From positions 1 through 6,005 of IMG/VR virus record IMGVR_UViG_3300020030_000088: a stretch of DNA of 6,005 nucleotides; one strand, written 5' to 3'. Shown here one piece after another: positions 79 through 6,005 of this stretch (positions are counted from its first letter, which is position 1; every line of letters begins with the position of its first letter). The notes below the pieces were generated by a model, which saw nothing but the letters and a program-made list of their open reading frames with translations, searched no databases and was not told the DNA's origin. This DNA is from a virus. The translations under genes were made by a program, and so were the position numbers.

Positions 79-121
79 TCATGGCCTGCCAGTCTCCTAT
101 ATGGATTAGAAACCGTCGTTA
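1..121. repeat. Terminal redundancy, copy 1. Identical to 5885-6005, the signature of a circular 5884-nt genome linearised with overlap.
   Basis: Base-by-base comparison shows 1-121 equals 5885-6005 with no mismatch. The identity runs to both window edges at an offset of 5884. Confidence 0.95.
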
Positions 122-1151
122 TTACGACAAGAAGAACCCTTCTCGTCTTGGTTCTGATGTTGCGTGCTCTGCGCTTGCGCTTCGCCCCTGGGATGTTTCT
201 CGCCAGTGGCTTATGGTTCCTTGTGGTAAGTGCGAGGATTGCCTTCGCCGCCTTCGCAACGATTGGTTTGTTCGTATAGAGCGTGAGTTGGCTCGGTGCA
301 AGGCCGAGTCCCGGCAGGCCATTTTTATTACTATCACTATTAATCCCGTCCATTATCAGGACGCACTTCTCGACCCTTCTTCATTTGTACGCAAATGGAA
401 TGAGCGAATTCGACACAAGATTGGTCATTCTTTTAAACATTGCTTCTTCCAGGAGTTTGGAGTTCATCCGGAGATTGGATCTGAACCCCGTTTGCATTTT
501 CATGGGTTCCTTTTTGGAACGGATGTTTTGTATAATGAAATCCGGTCGGCGGTTTCTGACCTTGGATATGTATGGCTTTCGAAAGCTACGCTTAAGCGTG
601 CTCGATATTGCGTTAAATATGTTGTTAAACAGATTGGCTTTGATCTCGATCAGATTAAAGACCGTTATGTTACTGTAGATGGAAAATTACAATCTCTTTC
701 TTCCCTTCTTGAACACAGGCGCTATACCCGTAAGTTTGTCAGCCCTGGTGTGGGTGATTTCCTTGGCTATAAGCCTTGCCCTTCTGTACATGTTGCGTCT
801 TGGTCTTATATGGACGCTTCGAAAGGTGTCGTATATAATTACGCGATCCCTCGATACTACAATCGCTATCTTAAACCAGAAGACGAAAGACGAAAGGCCG
901 TATTGGCTGCTGATGCGTATTCACGTTTCAGCAAGTCTCCTTTGGTGCGTCGTATCGTGTCTCTGTGTGTTGCATCTTTCCTTCCCGCTGCCTCCGTATC
1001 CGGTCGAGATACATACACCTGGGAGCAGAAGCAGGTAATGAAATTTCGTGCCTCAAAGCGCAAGATGCCTGATCTGGATCCTCCGACCTTTCTGGATGAG
1101 GACATCTTGCGTTTTTGGCGTGATGAGTATAATCTTCAACTAATTATTTAA
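81..1151 (+). CDS. VP4: Replication initiation protein (Microviridae VP4, HUH rolling-circle endonuclease), 356 aa
   Basis: RCR motif I-like AIFITITIN. HUH motif LHFHGFLF with H139/H141 at nt 495-503. Paired catalytic tyrosines YCVKYVVKQ with Y176 at nt 606-608 and Y180 at nt 618-620, the same YxxKY arrangement as phiX174 gene A protein. N-terminal Cys cluster CGKCEDC is typical of microviral VP4. The gene sits directly upstream of the capsid gene, with its stop 2 nt before the VP1 ATG. Confidence 0.9.
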   Translation: MACQSPIWIRNRRYYDKKNPSRLGSDVACSALALRPWDVSRQWLMVPCGKCEDCLRRLRNDWFVRIERELARCKAESRQAIFITITINPVHYQDALLDPSSFVRKWNERIRHKIGHSFKHCFFQEFGVHPEIGSEPRLHFHGFLFGTDVLYNEIRSAVSDLGYVWLSKATLKRARYCVKYVVKQIGFDLDQIKDRYVTVDGKLQSLSSLLEHRRYTRKFVSPGVGDFLGYKPCPSVHVASWSYMDASKGVVYNYAIPRYYNRYLKPEDERRKAVLAADAYSRFSKSPLVRRIVSLCVASFLPAASVSGRDTYTWEQKQVMKFRASKRKMPDLDPPTFLDEDILRFWRDEYNLQLII

Positions 1152-1153
1152 TT

Positions 1154-2968
1154 ATGGGAAAACAGCCCTTTGTTTCACATGTTGTGAATGGCTATTCTCG
1201 CTACGATGTTCCCGAGAATAAGGCCTTTACGTGCACGCCGGGTATTTTGTATCCGGTGCGTATTGATTTTATTAACGCCCGTGACCGCGTTTCTATCGAG
1301 CAGGGTATTGATGTTCGCAGTAATCCTCTTGCTGTTCCGACATTCAACCCTTACACTGTTCGTCTTCATCGTTTCTGGGTGCCATTGCAGTTGTATCACT
1401 CGGAGATGCGCGTCAACTCATCGAAGTTTGATATGAATTCTCTTTCGACGAATTGGATACCGGCTTCCATTAATACAGATCCCAATTTGGGTGCCTCGAA
1501 GACTGGCTACCCTAATAGCCTGCTTTCCTGGCTTCGTGTTTCGAATCGCGTTCTCAACAAGGATTCTAGTACAGCTACCTACCAGTCGCAGACTCTTCCC
1601 TCTCCCCTGGATAATCAGCGTTGGGTTAATGCTGACCCGTATCTCGCTTATTGGGATATTGTTCGCAATTATTATAGCTACTCGCAGTGGTCTCTATTCT
1701 CCATGGCTTGGCCGGCTTCTTGGTCTATTTTTAATACCAGTGATGCGCCTGGTACTGTTGATCTTACCACCGTTTTTTCTGCCGAGTCGAGTTATTTTTC
1801 GCAGACTTACGCTAACCTCGAATTCCTTGACGCCTATTTTGAAAGTCAATTCTACCCCTCGGCCGTTGTTTCATCCAACAACACGTTTAATCGTTCGAAT
1901 TTGTTCTATCAGCTGATAAATTCTCAAATCCGCAGCTCTTCGGGTGTTGACTCCTCGGGTTATCCTGTTTGGTCTGATCCTCTTACTATGAGTTCATCGG
2001 ATTTCACCGGCGATCGCCCCGCTTCGCAGGTTTCGACCTCCGGTAGTGCTACTAACGTCGTTACTCCTATTGGGCTGTTCCTTTCAGCTCATCCGATGGC
2101 TGTAGTGCCCTCAAACCCTGATCGATTTAGTCGTCTTATTCCTACGGGTTCAGCGTCTGCCGTTTCGATGGCCGGCGTGTCTACTATCCCGCAGCTGGCC
2201 ATTGCTTCGCGTCTTCAGGAATATAAGGACCTTCTCGGAGCCGGCGGTAGTCGTTATAGCGATTGGTTGGAAACGTTCTTCGCCTCAAAGATTGAGCACG
2301 TTGACCGTCCTAAACTCTTATTTTCGGCTTCGCAGACTGTTAATGTTCAGGTTGTCATGAATCAGGCTGGAAATGGTAATTTCAGTACCGAAGAAGGCTT
2401 TCCTCCTCTTGGTCAGCAAGGTGGTGCTATTGCTTTCAATACTAGGCTCGGTCGCCGCCAGTCGTATTATTTCCGTGAGCCCGGCTATTTGATTGACATG
2501 TTGAGTATTAGACCTGTTTATTACTGGTCGCAAATTCGTCCTGATTATCTGAATTACCAGGGCCCTGATTACTTCAACCCTATTTATAACGATATTGGGT
2601 ATCAGGACGTTCCCGTTTACCTTCTTGGTCCCGCGGGCCATACTGTTTCGACTTCTACTCTTTCGACCGAACCTTGCTTTAATGAGTTCCGCAGCAGCTA
2701 TGATGAGGTTCTAGGTCAGATCTCTCGTTCGAATGGTTTTGGTACTTCAGCCTCTGTTTATTCTTATTGGGTGCAGCAGCGTGGTCTTCCTGATTTTGTT
2801 AATAATACCGACACTGTTTATTATCCGTTCCTTTTTGTGGATATGTCGCAGGTAAATTCCCCTTTCGCTTCTAACGTAGAGGACAATTTCTTTGTTAATA
2901 TGTCTTACGCCGTCCAGAAGAAGAATCTTATAAATAAAACCTTTGCAACTCGTTTGTCTAATCGCTAA
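1154..2968 (+). CDS. VP1: Major capsid protein (Microviridae VP1 / F-protein family), 604 aa
   Basis: Largest ORF, of a size typical for non-phiX microviral capsid proteins. The N-terminal pattern TPGILYPV...RSNPLAVPTFNPYTVRLHRFWVPLQLY resembles the conserved G-x-L-x-P ... R-x-x-P ... F-x-VP block of VP1/F proteins. Strong third-position T/C codon bias. Its shadow ORFs behave as expected for a real gene. Confidence 0.9.
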   Translation: MGKQPFVSHVVNGYSRYDVPENKAFTCTPGILYPVRIDFINARDRVSIEQGIDVRSNPLAVPTFNPYTVRLHRFWVPLQLYHSEMRVNSSKFDMNSLSTNWIPASINTDPNLGASKTGYPNSLLSWLRVSNRVLNKDSSTATYQSQTLPSPLDNQRWVNADPYLAYWDIVRNYYSYSQWSLFSMAWPASWSIFNTSDAPGTVDLTTVFSAESSYFSQTYANLEFLDAYFESQFYPSAVVSSNNTFNRSNLFYQLINSQIRSSSGVDSSGYPVWSDPLTMSSSDFTGDRPASQVSTSGSATNVVTPIGLFLSAHPMAVVPSNPDRFSRLIPTGSASAVSMAGVSTIPQLAIASRLQEYKDLLGAGGSRYSDWLETFFASKIEHVDRPKLLFSASQTVNVQVVMNQAGNGNFSTEEGFPPLGQQGGAIAFNTRLGRRQSYYFREPGYLIDMLSIRPVYYWSQIRPDYLNYQGPDYFNPIYNDIGYQDVPVYLLGPAGHTVSTSTLSTEPCFNEFRSSYDEVLGQISRSNGFGTSASVYSYWVQQRGLPDFVNNTDTVYYPFLFVDMSQVNSPFASNVEDNFFVNMSYAVQKKNLINKTFATRLSNR

Positions 2969-3277: not shown

Positions 3278-3307
3278 TACTATCTTTACTTGACGATATA
3301 TGTTACG

Positions 3308-3386
3308 TGCGCGGACCCCTTCTGTGGAGAGTTCGTGAATCCGCAAAGGTTCCCGGGTACCGACTGCAGGAGGGCCGCGTATTTTT
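3308..3386 (+). terminator. GC-rich branched stem-loop (island A) followed by a T5 tract. Candidate intrinsic terminator or ssDNA/RNA structural element.
   Basis: Outer stem 3308-3314 pairs with 3375-3381 (tgcgcgg/ccgcgta, one G-T pair). After bulged a3315, 3316-3318 pairs with 3372-3374 (ccc/ggg). Inner stem 3322-3327 pairs with 3364-3369 (ctgtgg/ctgcag, two G-T pairs). Apical hairpin 3337-3341 pairs with 3348-3352 (gaatc/ggttc) with loop cgcaaa. The 3' half of the outer stem is followed by a-ttttt (3382-3386). By hand count the 3306-3380 core is about 65% G+C in an otherwise T-rich genome. It lies at the end of the ORF65-VP4-VP1-ORF98 gene block. Confidence 0.45.
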
Positions 3387-3473
3387 CTATCGTTCTTTAA
3401 TGTTTTATGGAGGTCGCCTCTATCTAACTTATTGACCTTAAGTTTATTATTTTTTTTTAAATTTATTGCTGCA

Positions 3474-3659
3474 ATGAAGTTTAAAGATCTTATTCACTCC
3501 AAGAAATTTTGGACTCTGGTTGCCGCTGTTGTCGCTGCTCTTTCGGCGTTCTTCTTGTCCTCGTGTTCTGCACAGGCTAAAGTTTATCGTTATGGTGTTC
3601 ATATTGACACTGTTCGTGTAGACTACATTATTCGTTCGAACAACTATAGCCTTCCCTAG
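3474..3659 (+). CDS. Small predicted lipoprotein (61-aa precursor, about 31-aa mature peptide), function unknown
   Basis: MKFKDLIHSKK (basic n-region), then FWTLVAAVVAALSAFF (hydrophobic h-region), then the lipobox L-S-S-C with Cys31 at nt 3564-3566. This fits the generic bacterial lipoprotein signal pattern. ATG 3474 is preferred over the track's TTG at 3432. The stop (3657-3659) is 1 nt before the VP2 ATG (3661). An in-register antisense shadow ORF and the shared codon bias support coding. Confidence 0.7.
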   Translation: MKFKDLIHSKKFWTLVAAVVAALSAFFLSSCSAQAKVYRYGVHIDTVRVDYIIRSNNYSLP

Positions 3660-3660
3660 T

Positions 3661-4923
3661 ATGCAGCTCATTGACTTTAAAAGTTACGTCGAGCCTGTTT
3701 CTACGGGTGCTATGCTCGGTGCTGCTGCCCTTTCCGCTGGCGGCCAGGTTGCCTCTGGCCTTTTTAAACCATCTCTCAAGCGTCAGTGGAAGTATCAGCA
3801 GAAGCAGATGAAGCTCCAACAGCAGTACGCTTTGGAACAGATGCAGAAACAAGGTGAAATTAATTATGCCAACTGGCAGAAGCAATTCGACTATGAGAAC
3901 GCCTATAACGATCCCTCGAAAGTCTTTGATCGCTACCTTAAAGCTGGTGTCACTCCTGCTGCTGTCCTTGGGTCCTCTGGTGTTGGTGTTAATGCTACTA
4001 TGCCTGGTGGTTCTCCTGGCTCTGTAGGCGCTTCTGGCCCCTCTGGAGGTTCGTTTGATTTCTCCAGTCCTCTGCCTCCCGGCGTTGGTGCTGCTGCTGC
4101 TGGAACTGCTCTTGAGGCTATGAATGTCAATGCATCCATCGAGCGCAACAAAGCCGCTGCCAACCTTGATAACGCTCAAGCCGAGGACATTCGCAATAAG
4201 ATGCCTACCAAGGAGCAGGGTCAGGCCCTTATCGAGCTTGAGAAGCAGTTGAAACAGGCTAACATCAACAATCAATCTGCGCTCGCCTCTTATTACGGCG
4301 AGTTGGCTATCAATCAAGAGGCTTACAATCGGTATGCCGACCTTGCCGCTACCTATGATTTTCAGCGCATTGTTGCCGCTTATACTGAACAGGTTGAACG
4401 CACGAGGCGCATTCGTGCCGAGAATGATGCCGAGATTCCTCTTTTGGACCAGTCTGCTGCTGCTAATCTTGCTTATCTCCGTGCTCTTGCCTCCGCCTCT
4501 AATGCTGCTGCTCGCGAGTCTTGGAGTCGTTCCGGTCTTCTTGACCTTCAGCAGAGCGATATGCAGCACATGTTTGAGGTGACTTGGGATACCCCCGTTA
4601 AGGTTCCTCTTGTTGACGATAAGGGCAAGCCTACTGGTGAGTACGAGGAAATTACCGGTCGCGAGTATTATTCTTATCTTCATGGTCTTGAGCTTGGCGA
4701 GATGCGGCAGAGTCTTTCTGGTAATTGGTTTCAGATTCGTAAGAACAAGAACGCTCTTTTCTATGATGTCACGAAGTCCTTCGCTACTGCTGCAGGTGTG
4801 TATGCAGCATCAAAGTCCGGTGGTTCTTCTGCGTCGGAAACCATGACTGAACGTTATGGCCCTGATGGTGATTTTATCGGAGGCACTCGCGTTACTCGAT
4901 CTCAAATAGGGAAAAAGCGATAA
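3661..4923 (+). CDS. VP2: Minor capsid / DNA pilot protein (Microviridae VP2, H-like), 420 aa
   Basis: An N-terminal hydrophobic Gly/Ala segment is followed by a Q/K-rich helix. The block YENAYNDPSKVFDRYLKAGVTPAAVLG matches the conserved VP2 signature (aromatic-x-N-x-x-N-S/D-P ... R-x-x-x-AG-L/V-N/T-P). A Gly/Ser/Pro/Ala low-complexity linker and a long predicted coiled-coil region follow. It is the second-largest ORF, as expected for VP2. Confidence 0.8.
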   Translation: MQLIDFKSYVEPVSTGAMLGAAALSAGGQVASGLFKPSLKRQWKYQQKQMKLQQQYALEQMQKQGEINYANWQKQFDYENAYNDPSKVFDRYLKAGVTPAAVLGSSGVGVNATMPGGSPGSVGASGPSGGSFDFSSPLPPGVGAAAAGTALEAMNVNASIERNKAAANLDNAQAEDIRNKMPTKEQGQALIELEKQLKQANINNQSALASYYGELAINQEAYNRYADLAATYDFQRIVAAYTEQVERTRRIRAENDAEIPLLDQSAAANLAYLRALASASNAAARESWSRSGLLDLQQSDMQHMFEVTWDTPVKVPLVDDKGKPTGEYEEITGREYYSYLHGLELGEMRQSLSGNWFQIRKNKNALFYDVTKSFATAAGVYAASKSGGSSASETMTERYGPDGDFIGGTRVTRSQIGKKR

Positions 4924-5264: not shown

Positions 5265-5588
5265 ATGACTTCTATCCATTTTTGTTTTCGCCGTATTAAT
5301 CCGGCTCTCTCTATCGATCTCTGTTCTATAGGCACTGTCGTTGAGGACCATTTCGTTCCTCTCGATGACGCCCGTCTTGACGCTCTTAAGCGTTGGATGG
5401 AATCTCTCAATCTCGGCGATTTCATTTGTCGTGATACTATTAGCACCGAATCCTATGTTCACCATGACCGGATTAGCTCTTTCCTTAATGCTTTTCCCGT
5501 CAAATCGGTCGATTTCTTCCAGGATTCGCTTATCGTTGTTGTAGAACTTACACTTGATGGACATGTCACGCCGTCGGAAGAAAAGTAA
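5265..5588 (+). CDS. Hypothetical protein, 107 aa
   Basis: ATG with an AT-rich upstream context like all other starts. About 85% pyrimidine at codon position 3, and the same preferred codons (cgt, ctt, gat, gtt, tct, tcg) as VP1. It also produces both diagnostic shadow ORFs: a hydrophobic +1-frame ORF (5341..5544) and an in-register antisense ORF (5256..5624). No recognisable domain. Confidence 0.6.
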   Translation: MTSIHFCFRRINPALSIDLCSIGTVVEDHFVPLDDARLDALKRWMESLNLGDFICRDTISTESYVHHDRISSFLNAFPVKSVDFFQDSLIVVVELTLDGHVTPSEEK

Positions 5589-5745
5589 GGGTACTCGCGT
5601 CGTAACGCGCCCCCTTGGAGGCAAAGTCCTCTAATTGGTACCTGAAGCAGGCGTAGACGGCCAACGGCCGTGGCCATCCACGGAGTGGATATTGGACTCT
5701 GCGCCTGCTTCTCCATTTGATCGCAGTCGACTTGTCGAATCGATC
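5589..5745 (+). other. GC-rich multi-hairpin island B: two Y-shaped domains plus a third hairpin. Candidate ssDNA replication signal, RNA 3'-end structure or ncRNA.
   Basis: Domain 1: closing helix 5590-5594 with 5638-5642 (ggtac/gtacc); hairpin 5596-5600 with 5605-5609 (cgcgt/acgcg, loop cgta); hairpin 5615-5621 with 5628-5634 (ttggagg/cctctaa, one G-T pair, loop caaagt). Domain 2: 14-bp helix 5644-5657 with 5698-5711 (gaagcaggcgtaga/tctgcgcctgcttc, one G-T pair) enclosing hairpin 5658-5662 with 5666-5670 (cggcc/ggccg, loop aac) and hairpin 5676-5681 with 5685-5690 (atccac/gtggat, loop gga). Third hairpin: 5719-5723 with 5741-5745 (gatcg/cgatc) plus an inner helix, nominally 5727-5731 with 5734-5738 (tcgac/gtcga), where the apical c5731-g5734 pair would leave only a 2-nt loop, so realistically 4 bp (5727-5730 with 5735-5738) closing loop cttg. 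By hand count 5589-5711 is about 61% G+C. Confidence 0.5.
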
Positions 5746-5764
5746 TTCGTAAAATACTAAAATT

Positions 5765-5962
5765 ATGGATTACTGTGATGCTCCGAAATTTTGTCCTGCT
5801 GTTTCTGGTTCTCTTCTCCGGTGGTCTGTTGCCTTTTACCGAGGACGACGCCGGTTCGTTATAGCTTGGTTTGAGTCTGAAGCCGCAGCTTTGCGTTTTT
5901 TAAAGAGATCTCGTGATCAGAACCCCAATTTAAAGTTCGACTGTCTTGAATCTTTGTTTTAA
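5765..5962 (+). CDS. Small basic protein, 65 aa. Possible AP2/integrase-type DNA-binding fold (weak).
   Basis: ATG with an AT-rich leader, and a stop 2 nt before the VP4 ATG at 5965 (equivalent to 81). The segment RWSVAFYRGRRRFVIAWFESEAAALRFLK follows the AP2-like pattern W-x-[AV]-x-[IF]...basic...[VI]-x-hydrophobic-x-F-x-[ST]-x-E-x-A-A-x-x-[YF]. Net positive charge (11 K/R against 7 D/E by hand count). Confidence 0.6.
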   Translation: MDYCDAPKFCPAVSGSLLRWSVAFYRGRRRFVIAWFESEAAALRFLKRSRDQNPNLKFDCLESLF

Positions 5963-6005
5963 TCATGGCCTGCCAGTCTCCTATATGGATTAGAAACCGT
6001 CGTTA
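5885..6005. repeat. Terminal redundancy, copy 2. Identical to 1-121.
   Basis: See copy 1. It contains the end of the 65-aa ORF and the first 13 codons (plus 2 nt) of VP4. Confidence 0.95.
5965..6005 (+). CDS. VP4: 5' end of the VP4 Rep gene, a duplicate of 81-121 truncated by the window edge
   Basis: Sequence identical to 81-121 (MACQSPIWIRNRR...). Confidence 0.85.
   Translation, partial: MACQSPIWIRNRR

Follow-up and report, generated by a model that had tools for sequence, protein, structure and literature searches.

A covarying three-way junction upstream of the Rep operon of a microvirus is shared with distant microviruses

The window analysed here is the whole 6,005-nt stretch of DNA, a microvirus genome. 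In the gap before its Rep operon the plus strand carries a three-way junction (5644-5711) with a basal stem, P1, and two apical hairpins, P2 and P3. The structure of this junction, its conservation, its covariation, its modularity and its mobility are demonstrated below. We argue, tentatively, that the junction is part of a three-part plus-strand cassette. P1 would be a terminator, P2/P3 would be an initiation signal in single-stranded DNA that the host recognises, and a further hairpin with an AT box would be the start region of the Rep operon. We infer all three activities, termination, priming and promotion. The gap element is best filed as a variant of the intergenic terminator or complementary-strand-origin hairpin of ssDNA phages. 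What sets it apart from the known hairpins is a three-way junction that carries a twin mini-hairpin module, together with movement between distant microviruses.

The genome and the coding edge of the gap

The window covers a complete circular genome, and once its 121-nt terminal repeat is counted a single time the true length is 5884 nt. All of its genes are on the plus strand, every one of them lacks a Shine-Dalgarno sequence, and the 5.9-kb genome has no primase gene. The genes are listed here.

81-1151, plus strand: Rep/VP4, with a second copy of its start at 5967 (ATG 5967 = 81)
1154-2968, plus strand: VP1
between VP1 and the VP2-like gene in listed order, plus strand: small ORFs
3661-4923, plus strand: VP2-like pilot protein
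listed between the VP2-like gene and ORF107, plus strand: ORF99
5265-5588, plus strand: ORF107 (107-aa ORF), stop at 5586-5588
5557-5634, plus strand: unannotated 25-codon ORF (the micro-ORF), MDMSRRRKKSKGTRVVTRPLGGKVL and a stop, overlapping the end of ORF107 in another frame
5765-5962, plus strand: ORF65, a conserved small protein gene directly upstream of Rep and the first gene of the 'Rep operon'

The relatives of this virus are faecal microviruses of pigs, rodents, tortoises and lemurs. The comparison set consisted of 80 IMG/VR genomes with Reps 71-98% identical and several GenBank records. ORF65 homologues (MDxFDFRPRFSP...AWF...KFDCL) occur in nearly all of the 82 relatives fetched and usually overlap the Rep ATG. 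PHROG and Pfam searches with the 25-aa peptide, ORF65 and ORF107 gave nothing informative; ORF65 had no match and no profile matched the micro-ORF peptide. ARAGORN found nothing.

A sequence-only reading of this DNA had described a 176-nt gap before the Rep operon. This must be shortened, since the micro-ORF covers 5589-5634 and the non-coding gap is 5635-5764 (130 nt). The micro-ORF is present in 85 relatives with the consensus MKARRKKKGKGTKVVTRPLGGRVL and a length of 24-26 codons. Its stop codon varies freely (TAA 42, TGA 30, TAG 13), the entropy at the three codon positions is 0.19, 0.19 and 0.92, and codon differences are synonymous in 272 cases and non-synonymous in 79. An alignment of the 85 genomes has a highly conserved block 3' of the ORF107 stop where the variable columns fall on every third base. 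The block is conserved because it is coding. Judged by this codon pattern, 5557-5634 is an unannotated conserved basic peptide gene, and about a quarter of the element described earlier (5589-5634) is protein-coding. By size and charge this small, very basic peptide may be J-like, recalling the DNA-packaging J peptides known from phiX174 and G4. The GenBank 'hypothetical proteins' annotated across the region, for example in MK765655, are probably spurious.

Some structural proposals for this stretch can now be set aside. The earlier reading had a domain closed by ggtac/gtacc, and this does appear in the minimum-free-energy fold. The fold of this 'domain 1' (5589-5634) is not conserved, however. 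Across 19 relatives 60.1% of cells are paired, against 59.3% in shuffles (64/500), and the two main helices are paired in only 40-50% of cells. We reject it as a conserved structure since pairing is at the level of the shuffles. The motif CTTGG in the conserved block was considered as a phiX/pC194-like nick motif and dropped, since coding explains the block. A second copy of the block was sought in the other gap ('island A') and none was found within 6 mismatches.

The junction, its relatives and its movement

The claim that the gap is dense in helices holds up well. 5589-5764 folds to -67.2 kcal/mol with RNA parameters (z -4.25) and to -40.6 kcal/mol with DNA parameters (z -6.02). Both values are far better than the dinucleotide-shuffled controls, of which 0/200 were as good in each case. 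The minus strand folds less strongly (z -3.2). When the whole genome is scanned in segments of 120 nt with DNA parameters, 5641-5760 stands out most, at z -5.7 versus a genome mean of -0.47. The non-coding gap 5635-5764 has stable hairpins on the packaged strand. Its features are as follows.

5644-5656, plus strand: P1 5' arm, GAAGCAGGCGTAG, basal stem of the three-way junction, 13 bp
5657-5671, plus strand: P2 mini-hairpin, ACGGCC-AAC-GGCCGT, 6-bp stem and triloop
5672-5698, plus strand: P3 hairpin, with lower stem GGCC with TGG..C(T), internal loop, upper stem TCCAC/GTGGA and triloop C-GGA-G
5699-5711, plus strand: P1 3' arm, CTGCGCCTGCTTC, pairing with 5644-5656
5712-5718, plus strand: T-rich tail TCCATTT after P1, in the place of the T-run in the simple hairpins of relatives
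5719-5745, plus strand: hairpin 3, GATCG-CAG-TCGA-CTTG-TCGA-AT-CGATC, whose two stems flank a conserved 3x2 internal loop
5750-5755, plus strand: -10-like AT box TAAAAT, 9 nt before the ORF65 ATG

Several parts of this list had been noticed from the sequence alone. The 14-bp inverted repeat of the earlier reading is found at 5644-5657/5698-5711 (93% complementary), the two short GC hairpins it encloses are at 5657-5671 and 5677-5689, and the GATC-flanked hairpin with GTCGAC is at 5719-5745. What does not survive is the treatment of three domains as one element: the first is the tail of a coding sequence, the second a terminator-like stem into which a module has been inserted, and the third a separate conserved hairpin beside a -10-like box.

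The upper P3 hairpin is TCCAC-GGA-GTGGA (5677-5689). Below it is a conserved, asymmetric internal loop with A opposite TAT (TAA in relatives). P2 in most relatives is ACAGCC-GAA-GGCTGT, which contains CCGAAGG. When the junctions are aligned 98.1% of cells are in standard pairs, and slid registers reach 49% at most. Compensatory double changes occur in 12/22 pairs, which is matched by 0/500 shuffles. P1 (helix 1 of the covariation analysis) is 97.5% paired with double changes in 6/9 pairs, and G.U wobbles are common in it. P2 is 100% paired with 4/6 pairs covarying and no G.U. The upper stem of P3 is also 100% paired, with 2 covarying pairs and no G.U. An independent analysis with MAFFT and RNAalifold gives the same picture of covariation in the junction.

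Pattern scans and BLAST found the same architecture elsewhere, and a covariance model of the junction was then built from 15 genomes. It recovers 25 distinct microvirus genomes. Carriers outside the training set include L241 (68.7 bits), OM869680 (56.2), MK765655 (53.7) and MG945151 (32.2), and a search of about 0.8 Mb from unrelated loci gave nothing significant. The P2 stem of Tortoise microvirus 102 is wholly swapped (GAGATC-ATA-GATCTC), yet the geometry is kept and the model matches at 53.7 bits. A metagenome scan by the degenerate pattern of the module alone gave 120 loci, mostly soil or aquatic contigs that resemble chance matches. The suggestion that there is a real structure on the plus strand before the ORF65-Rep operon is upheld, and conservation and compensatory changes indicate that it is selected. 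The junction covaries across its 25 genomes, and hairpin 3 does so across 13 sequences.

The relatives indicate how the junction is put together. All of them have a GC-rich hairpin and then a T-run, starting a few nt after the J-like stop. An example is L004, which has GAGCCCCAGGAGA-ttttg-TCTCTCCTGTGGGTTC and then TTTTTATTT. In the window P1 begins 9 nt after the micro-ORF stop (5634) as a GC-rich stem-loop downstream of the last late gene. Its tail is TCCATTTG, with 4 T of 8, which makes a weak U-tract, and a consensus terminator scan made no call there. The tails of relatives average 5.3 T in 10 nt versus 3.2 for random genomic 10-mers; these statistics come from restricted folding, as global folds are confounded by long-range pairs. 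The motif TCCAT recurs 3' of P1 in several gap types. We argue that P1 and its T-rich tail are the local version of a factor-independent terminator hairpin, and they would terminate transcription here.

On this comparison P2/P3 is an inserted, independently conserved module. In type-C genomes the outer stem, GAACCC..GGGTTC, is identical to that of the simple hairpins, and P2/P3 takes the place of the apical loop. Six further genomes have the same stem platform with an unrelated insert of about 65 nt, and OM869647 has it with an AT-rich insert. The stem apex is therefore an insertion hot spot. About half of the clade (the 'long' type) has a further, different three-way junction downstream. The simple hairpin was the only one in 15 short-gap genomes checked by name, which lack the mini-hairpin module anywhere in the genome, and a rough typing puts 31/95 genomes in the simple-hairpin type. 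Since a sizeable minority of close relatives do without it the module is not essential. The gap types are spread patchily over the Rep tree.

The junction is also found well outside this clade. OM869680 (Peromfec virus RodF5_9) has a different gene order, and its Rep and VP1 are 27% and 26% identical to those of the window. It carries the junction, hairpin 3 and CGCCGTATAATAC, and these are about 78% identical to the W-type relatives L001, L016 and L241. This cassette is the strongest nucleotide match between OM869680 and the window's family. It comes 23 nt after a separate canonical terminator, GCCCAGG-TGGAATT-CCTGGGC-T8. MG945151 has the junction in its other intergenic gap, flanked by the ORF98 homologue and VP2. 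The placement of the module relative to transcription signals therefore varies: it is in the terminator loop in the window, after a terminator in OM869680 and in another gap in MG945151. The cassette is common to viruses with very different Reps, so it points to a host factor and not to a virus-specific protein.

Hairpin 3 and the start region of ORF65

Hairpin 3 is known from 13 sequences in four lineages. Its consensus is NTCG-CAG-TCGRC-loop-GYCGA-AT-CGAN', with the invariant blocks TCGCAGTCG and CGAATCGA. All cells are paired (100%) versus at most 53% in slid controls. Four pairs covary, one of them through all four Watson-Crick types, and there is no G.U. It occurs in the distant genomes L213, L316 and L317, and is absent from most relatives with closely similar Reps (types C, long and simple). 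The type-C genomes have the junction without it.

The distance from hairpin 3 to the next element is nearly fixed. In every carrier there are 4-5 nt, then a -10-like box, with a start codon 5-26 nt further on. The box is conserved across carriers with the variants TAAAAT, TATAAT, TTATAT, TAAATA and TTAAAT; it is TATAAT in MG945790, OM869680, MK765655 and OM869647. A promoter scan of the window returns TCGACT-17-TAAAAT at 5727-5755. Inspection of the hairpin-3 carriers by eye revealed no conserved -35 element. In OM869680 and OM869647 the cassette is followed by a gene unrelated to ORF65 or Rep, and the element is therefore not specific to the Rep operon.

What the cassette may do

The loops are worth considering as a line of reasoning on DNA versus RNA. 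P3 ends in C-GNA-G (N = A, G or T) in every carrier seen. P2 loops differ among carriers (GAA, AAA, AAC, ATA). The window has C-GGA-G in P3, within ACGGAGT, and AAC in P2. Exact GCGAAGC and CCGAAGG occur in most of the other carriers, and the 'long' module has GACGC-GNA-GCGTC (N = A, C, G or T) with CCGTTA(A)GG. Across the fetched relatives 62/106 C-GNA-G hairpins fall in the 200-nt bin that holds the gap, where the complementary type numbers 1. Strand asymmetry as such decides nothing between DNA and RNA because the plus strand is both virion DNA and mRNA sense. Mini-hairpin motifs of this kind have extraordinary stability in DNA but far less in RNA, and they have been reported at the priming sites of G4, St-1 and alpha3 and at RSF1010 ssiA (PMC13037366). 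P2, the upper part of P3 and hairpin 3 covary by Watson-Crick pairs only, whereas P1 tolerates G.U. This is weak evidence for the DNA level because few independent events lie behind the pattern. Frequent G.U in P1 is typical of RNA stems and supports a terminator role for P1. Taken from comparative sequence data, the GNA loops, the Watson-Crick-only covariation, the unfixed placement and the sharing across Reps favour a role for P2/P3 at the DNA level. It must be noted that the same conservation could also arise if a host or viral protein bound the RNA.

Known systems resemble the element in part. In phiX174 the T_F terminator hairpin, between F and G, overlaps ori(-) and the PriA (n') site (bioRxiv 10.64898/2026.07.25.740675). 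Like our proposal this is an intergenic plus-strand hairpin after a late gene that serves as an RNA terminator and as a complementary-strand start in ssDNA. It is a single long imperfect hairpin, however, and the window has a three-way junction with a twin mini-hairpin module whose function is predicted, with no sequence similarity between the two. The origins of G4, St-1 and alpha3 share with the window a cluster of stable intergenic hairpins on the packaged strand of a microvirus. Their hairpins contain G..A-closed mini-hairpin motifs, GCGAAAGC and GCGTTAGC, that are thought to resist SSB (PMC13037366). Relatives of the window carry GCGAAGC, CCGAAGG and CCGTTAGG as motifs of this type. The mini-hairpin series is GCGNAGC, GCGNNAGC and CCGAAGG, and the window has C-GGA-G (ACGGAGT) in P3 and AAC in P2. 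The three origins also differ in having three separate hairpins where the window has a junction and a separate hairpin with loops AAC and GGA. The CTG start triplet is not visible as a conserved feature in the window, and the sequence 3' of the junction shows no conserved trinucleotide at which a primase could start. Nor is there homology: blastn of 5580-5770 against 50,697 phage records (E <= 10) returned only close relatives and chance matches, with nothing from G4, St-1, alpha3 or phiX174.

The heptamer CCGAAGG provides another comparison. In RSF1010 ssiA/ssiB a short ssDNA hairpin with CCGAAGG is the priming signal for the RepB' primase (PMC13037366), and in most genomes with the module P2 is built on this same heptamer. 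RSF1010 is a plasmid with a dedicated primase, however, and the window genome has no primase gene. The earlier reading knew of nothing equivalent in microviruses outside the phiX group. This is out of date, as hairpins upstream of Rep with compensatory substitutions have been predicted in the reekeekee- and roodoodooviruses and tentatively assigned to minus-strand initiation (PMC9865509). These too are predicted hairpins in the pre-Rep gap of non-phiX microviruses. They are simple hairpins in unrelated small clades, whereas the cassette is branched, modular and common to distant lineages and gaps. Rho-independent terminators resemble P1 in having a GC-rich stem right after a stop and a T-rich tract, and the relatives are canonical at this site. 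They differ in that the 'loop' of the window is 42 nt in two conserved hairpins and the U-tract is weak (TCCATTT). The precedents offered earlier were well chosen in that the basal stem fits terminators and the apical hairpins fit C-GNA-G origin motifs, but each fits only parts of the element.

We argue that the cassette could work as follows. The J-like micro-ORF would be the last late gene and the terminator hairpin would follow it. In RNA, P1 and the T-rich tail would end late transcripts ahead of the ORF65-Rep operon or stabilise them. P2 and P3 would most likely act in the single-stranded viral DNA that enters the cell, as compact hairpins that resist SSB and present a GNA-type triloop and a conserved internal loop. 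A host priming enzyme, whether primase, primosome or RNA polymerase, would recognise them and complementary-strand synthesis would start. One branched hairpin would then serve both jobs, much as the phiX174 T_F terminator hairpin does with ori(-). Hairpin 3 and the -10-like box may be the start region of ORF65-Rep, as promoter or operator, or a further part of the signal the host recognises. The absence of the module from some relatives is not fatal to the origin reading, as M13 is viable with deletions of its minus-strand origin.

One can imagine that the junction works in RNA only. The whole of it would be an ornate Rho-independent terminator and a stabiliser of late-mRNA 3' ends, with the apical hairpins adding stability or helping the basal stem to close. 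Its position right after the last late gene suits this, as do its positional homology to the hairpin and T-run terminators of relatives and the T-rich tail after P1 in most carriers. The plus strand is also the mRNA strand, and the intergenic hairpins of phiX174 are terminators. However, the terminator stems of this clade diverge freely, and yet P2/P3 and the P3 internal loop are kept across Reps that are 27% identical. In OM869680 the junction follows a separate perfect terminator, and in MG945151 it is in another gap. Its loops are not GNRA or UNCG tetraloops but GNA triloops, whose stability is far lower in RNA than in DNA (PMC13037366), and P2, upper P3 and hairpin 3 have no G.U. We consider an RNA-only role unlikely, but a credible one. 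A role in cis-regulation is less probable again. Hairpin 3, the junction or both would be an operator or a 5'-leader RNA structure, bound by a viral or host protein, that sets Rep expression with TAAAAT as the -10. The near-fixed 4-5 nt from hairpin 3 to the box, the start codon 5-26 nt on and the promoter-scan match are in its favour, and the invariant asymmetric blocks of hairpin 3 resemble a protein recognition site. Against it, no -35 is conserved among carriers, the element is not Rep-operon specific in OM869680 and OM869647, and type-C genomes have the junction alone. The AT box could equally be an unstructured translation-initiation region because no gene has a Shine-Dalgarno sequence.

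A signal that depends on Rep seems very unlikely. Origins of HUH Reps have a hairpin followed by a conserved AT-rich 8-9-mer, and hairpin 3 with its GTAWAATAC box adjoins the Rep operon in a similar arrangement. It could then be a plus-strand rolling-circle origin, with a Rep hairpin and nick site, or a packaging signal. However, hairpin 3 is missing from most relatives whose Reps are closely similar and near-identical in genomes whose Reps are 27% identical. The AT box varies as a -10 hexamer does, and no similarity to the phiX174 origin was detected. The least probable explanations, which we regard as highly improbable, are a stand-alone ncRNA or ribozyme and a dif-like site for XerCD recombination in lysogeny. 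The dense conserved structure could suggest the former. The latter could be suggested by hairpin 3, an imperfect palindrome whose 27 bp are close to the size of dif, and by the dif motifs present in non-coding regions of some gokushoviruses (PMC7062461). The earlier reading recognised no known ribozyme core and the Rfam search agrees: its covariance models had no match in the window region (E <= 10) or in 16 relatives that include the other insert types (E <= 1 to 5). As for dif, hairpin 3 covaries to keep its pairing, which is not expected of a mimic of host dif. Its pattern has 21 scattered, chance-like matches in unrelated GC-rich taxa among 185,579 species genomes, and on this ground the dif-like idea is rejected. 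No prophage relatives or att site were found, and a VP1 scan of the species genomes gave no prophage or host match.

The preferred reading is therefore still the three-part cassette. To our knowledge the conversion of ssDNA to the replicative form in microviruses has been studied only in phiX174, G4 and their close relatives. The cassette is a short (about 70-105 nt), testable candidate signal for strand conversion in uncultured gut microviruses. It makes clear mutational predictions, which concern the GNA loop, the internal loop of P3 and compensatory changes in the stems. A basic peptide gene of 24-26 aa, universally conserved and unannotated, has also come to light. A bolder proposal, which we think doubtful, is that the junction, hairpin 3 and AT box are a horizontally mobile, self-contained non-coding cassette that passes between unrelated microviruses and between their gaps, and that spreads by plugging any ssDNA genome into an enzyme of the host. 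As a signal for single-strand initiation or a single-strand promoter it would represent a new class, with GNA mini-hairpins in a three-way junction, probably in Shine-Dalgarno-independent gut hosts. The presence of the cassette in very different microviruses suggests a common host factor, and if there is one it could help to assign hosts to these viruses.

Genome form and small reading frames

The termini of the window are an exact direct repeat of 121 nt (1-121 and 5885-6005), and the circular genome that the contig represents is 5884 nt long. The reading frames considered here are all on the plus strand:

81-1151, plus strand: Rep, with a second start at 5967 in the terminal repeat
5557-5634, plus strand: unannotated, highly basic ORF of 25 codons, overlapping the end of ORF107
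5765-5962, plus strand: ORF65, with the motif MDxFDxxPRFSP...AWF...KFDCL

The 25-codon ORF is kept in 85 relatives, and Tortoise microvirus 102 also has a counterpart (MSRKNRRRKQTRGTRVVTRPLLGPVL). It is not annotated in any of the GenBank relatives whose annotation was inspected. Its peptide may be a J-like DNA-packaging peptide, as its size and charge resemble those of the J peptides of phiX174 and G4. ORF65 is kept in nearly all close relatives, where it usually overlaps the Rep ATG (ATGA), and it has no match in Pfam or PHROG. The relative L034 has the three-way junction of the pre-Rep gap directly 5' of the Rep ATG, with no intervening ORF65.

MK765655 carries a 'hypothetical protein' CDS at 4240-4527 (1533-1820 of L316, minus strand) that overlaps part of the junction as well as hairpin 3, which follows the junction, and the -10-like box. 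This CDS is probably a spurious call.

Alternative modules in the pre-Rep gap

About half of the clade (e.g. L013, L045 and L066) has a different conserved module of ~110 nt between the J-like ORF and ORF65. It has two parts:

Part 1, three-way junction: GAGCTCGA / GACGC-GNA-GCGTC / CGGCC-GTTA(A)-GGCCG / TCGAGC
Part 2, 11-bp hairpin: GCGCTCGAAAG...CTTTCGAAGCGC

The two mini-hairpins of this module are like P3 and P2, the mini-hairpins of the window's junction, with their order swapped. Its DNA fold has a z of -4.4, and it has no Rfam match. Another arrangement is found in six IMG/VR microvirus contigs (L226, L227, L230, L237, L247 and L252), where a stem (GAAxCCCCGA.../...TCGGGGxTTC) of the type of P1, the junction's basal stem, holds an unrelated insert of ~65 nt. 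This insert contains a GATGCGT direct repeat and is followed by hairpin 3; it too has no Rfam match.

Structure elsewhere in the genome

The second non-coding gap was examined as well:

3278-3431: 'island A', GC-rich, with a GCGCGG...CCGCG stem and then TATTTTT

Its DNA fold is not significant (z -1.8). MG945151 has the twin-hairpin junction in its equivalent of island A and not in the pre-Rep gap. ORF75 (3432-3659) is small and membrane-protein-like. Within it, 3498-3614 matches OM869680 5233-5349 (70% over 121 nt); no other nucleotide similarity to this distant Peromfec virus was found in the window itself.

With DNA parameters, 1001-1160 ranks second in the genome for structure (z -3.7 to -4.2); this stretch includes the end of rep as well as the start of VP1. 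Across the relatives, C-GNA-G triloop hairpins outside the gap form a cluster of 24 that lies in the VP2-like gene or just after it, with the Rep start 1200-1400 nt downstream. This cluster may be a conserved structure in or beside coding sequence.

Translation starts and the host

No recognisable Shine-Dalgarno sequence is found in the 30 nt upstream of any start codon in the window, and the sequence preceding the start codons is A/T-rich (...aattATG). Together these features suggest a host with Shine-Dalgarno-independent initiation, such as one of the Bacteroidota, or leaderless mRNAs.
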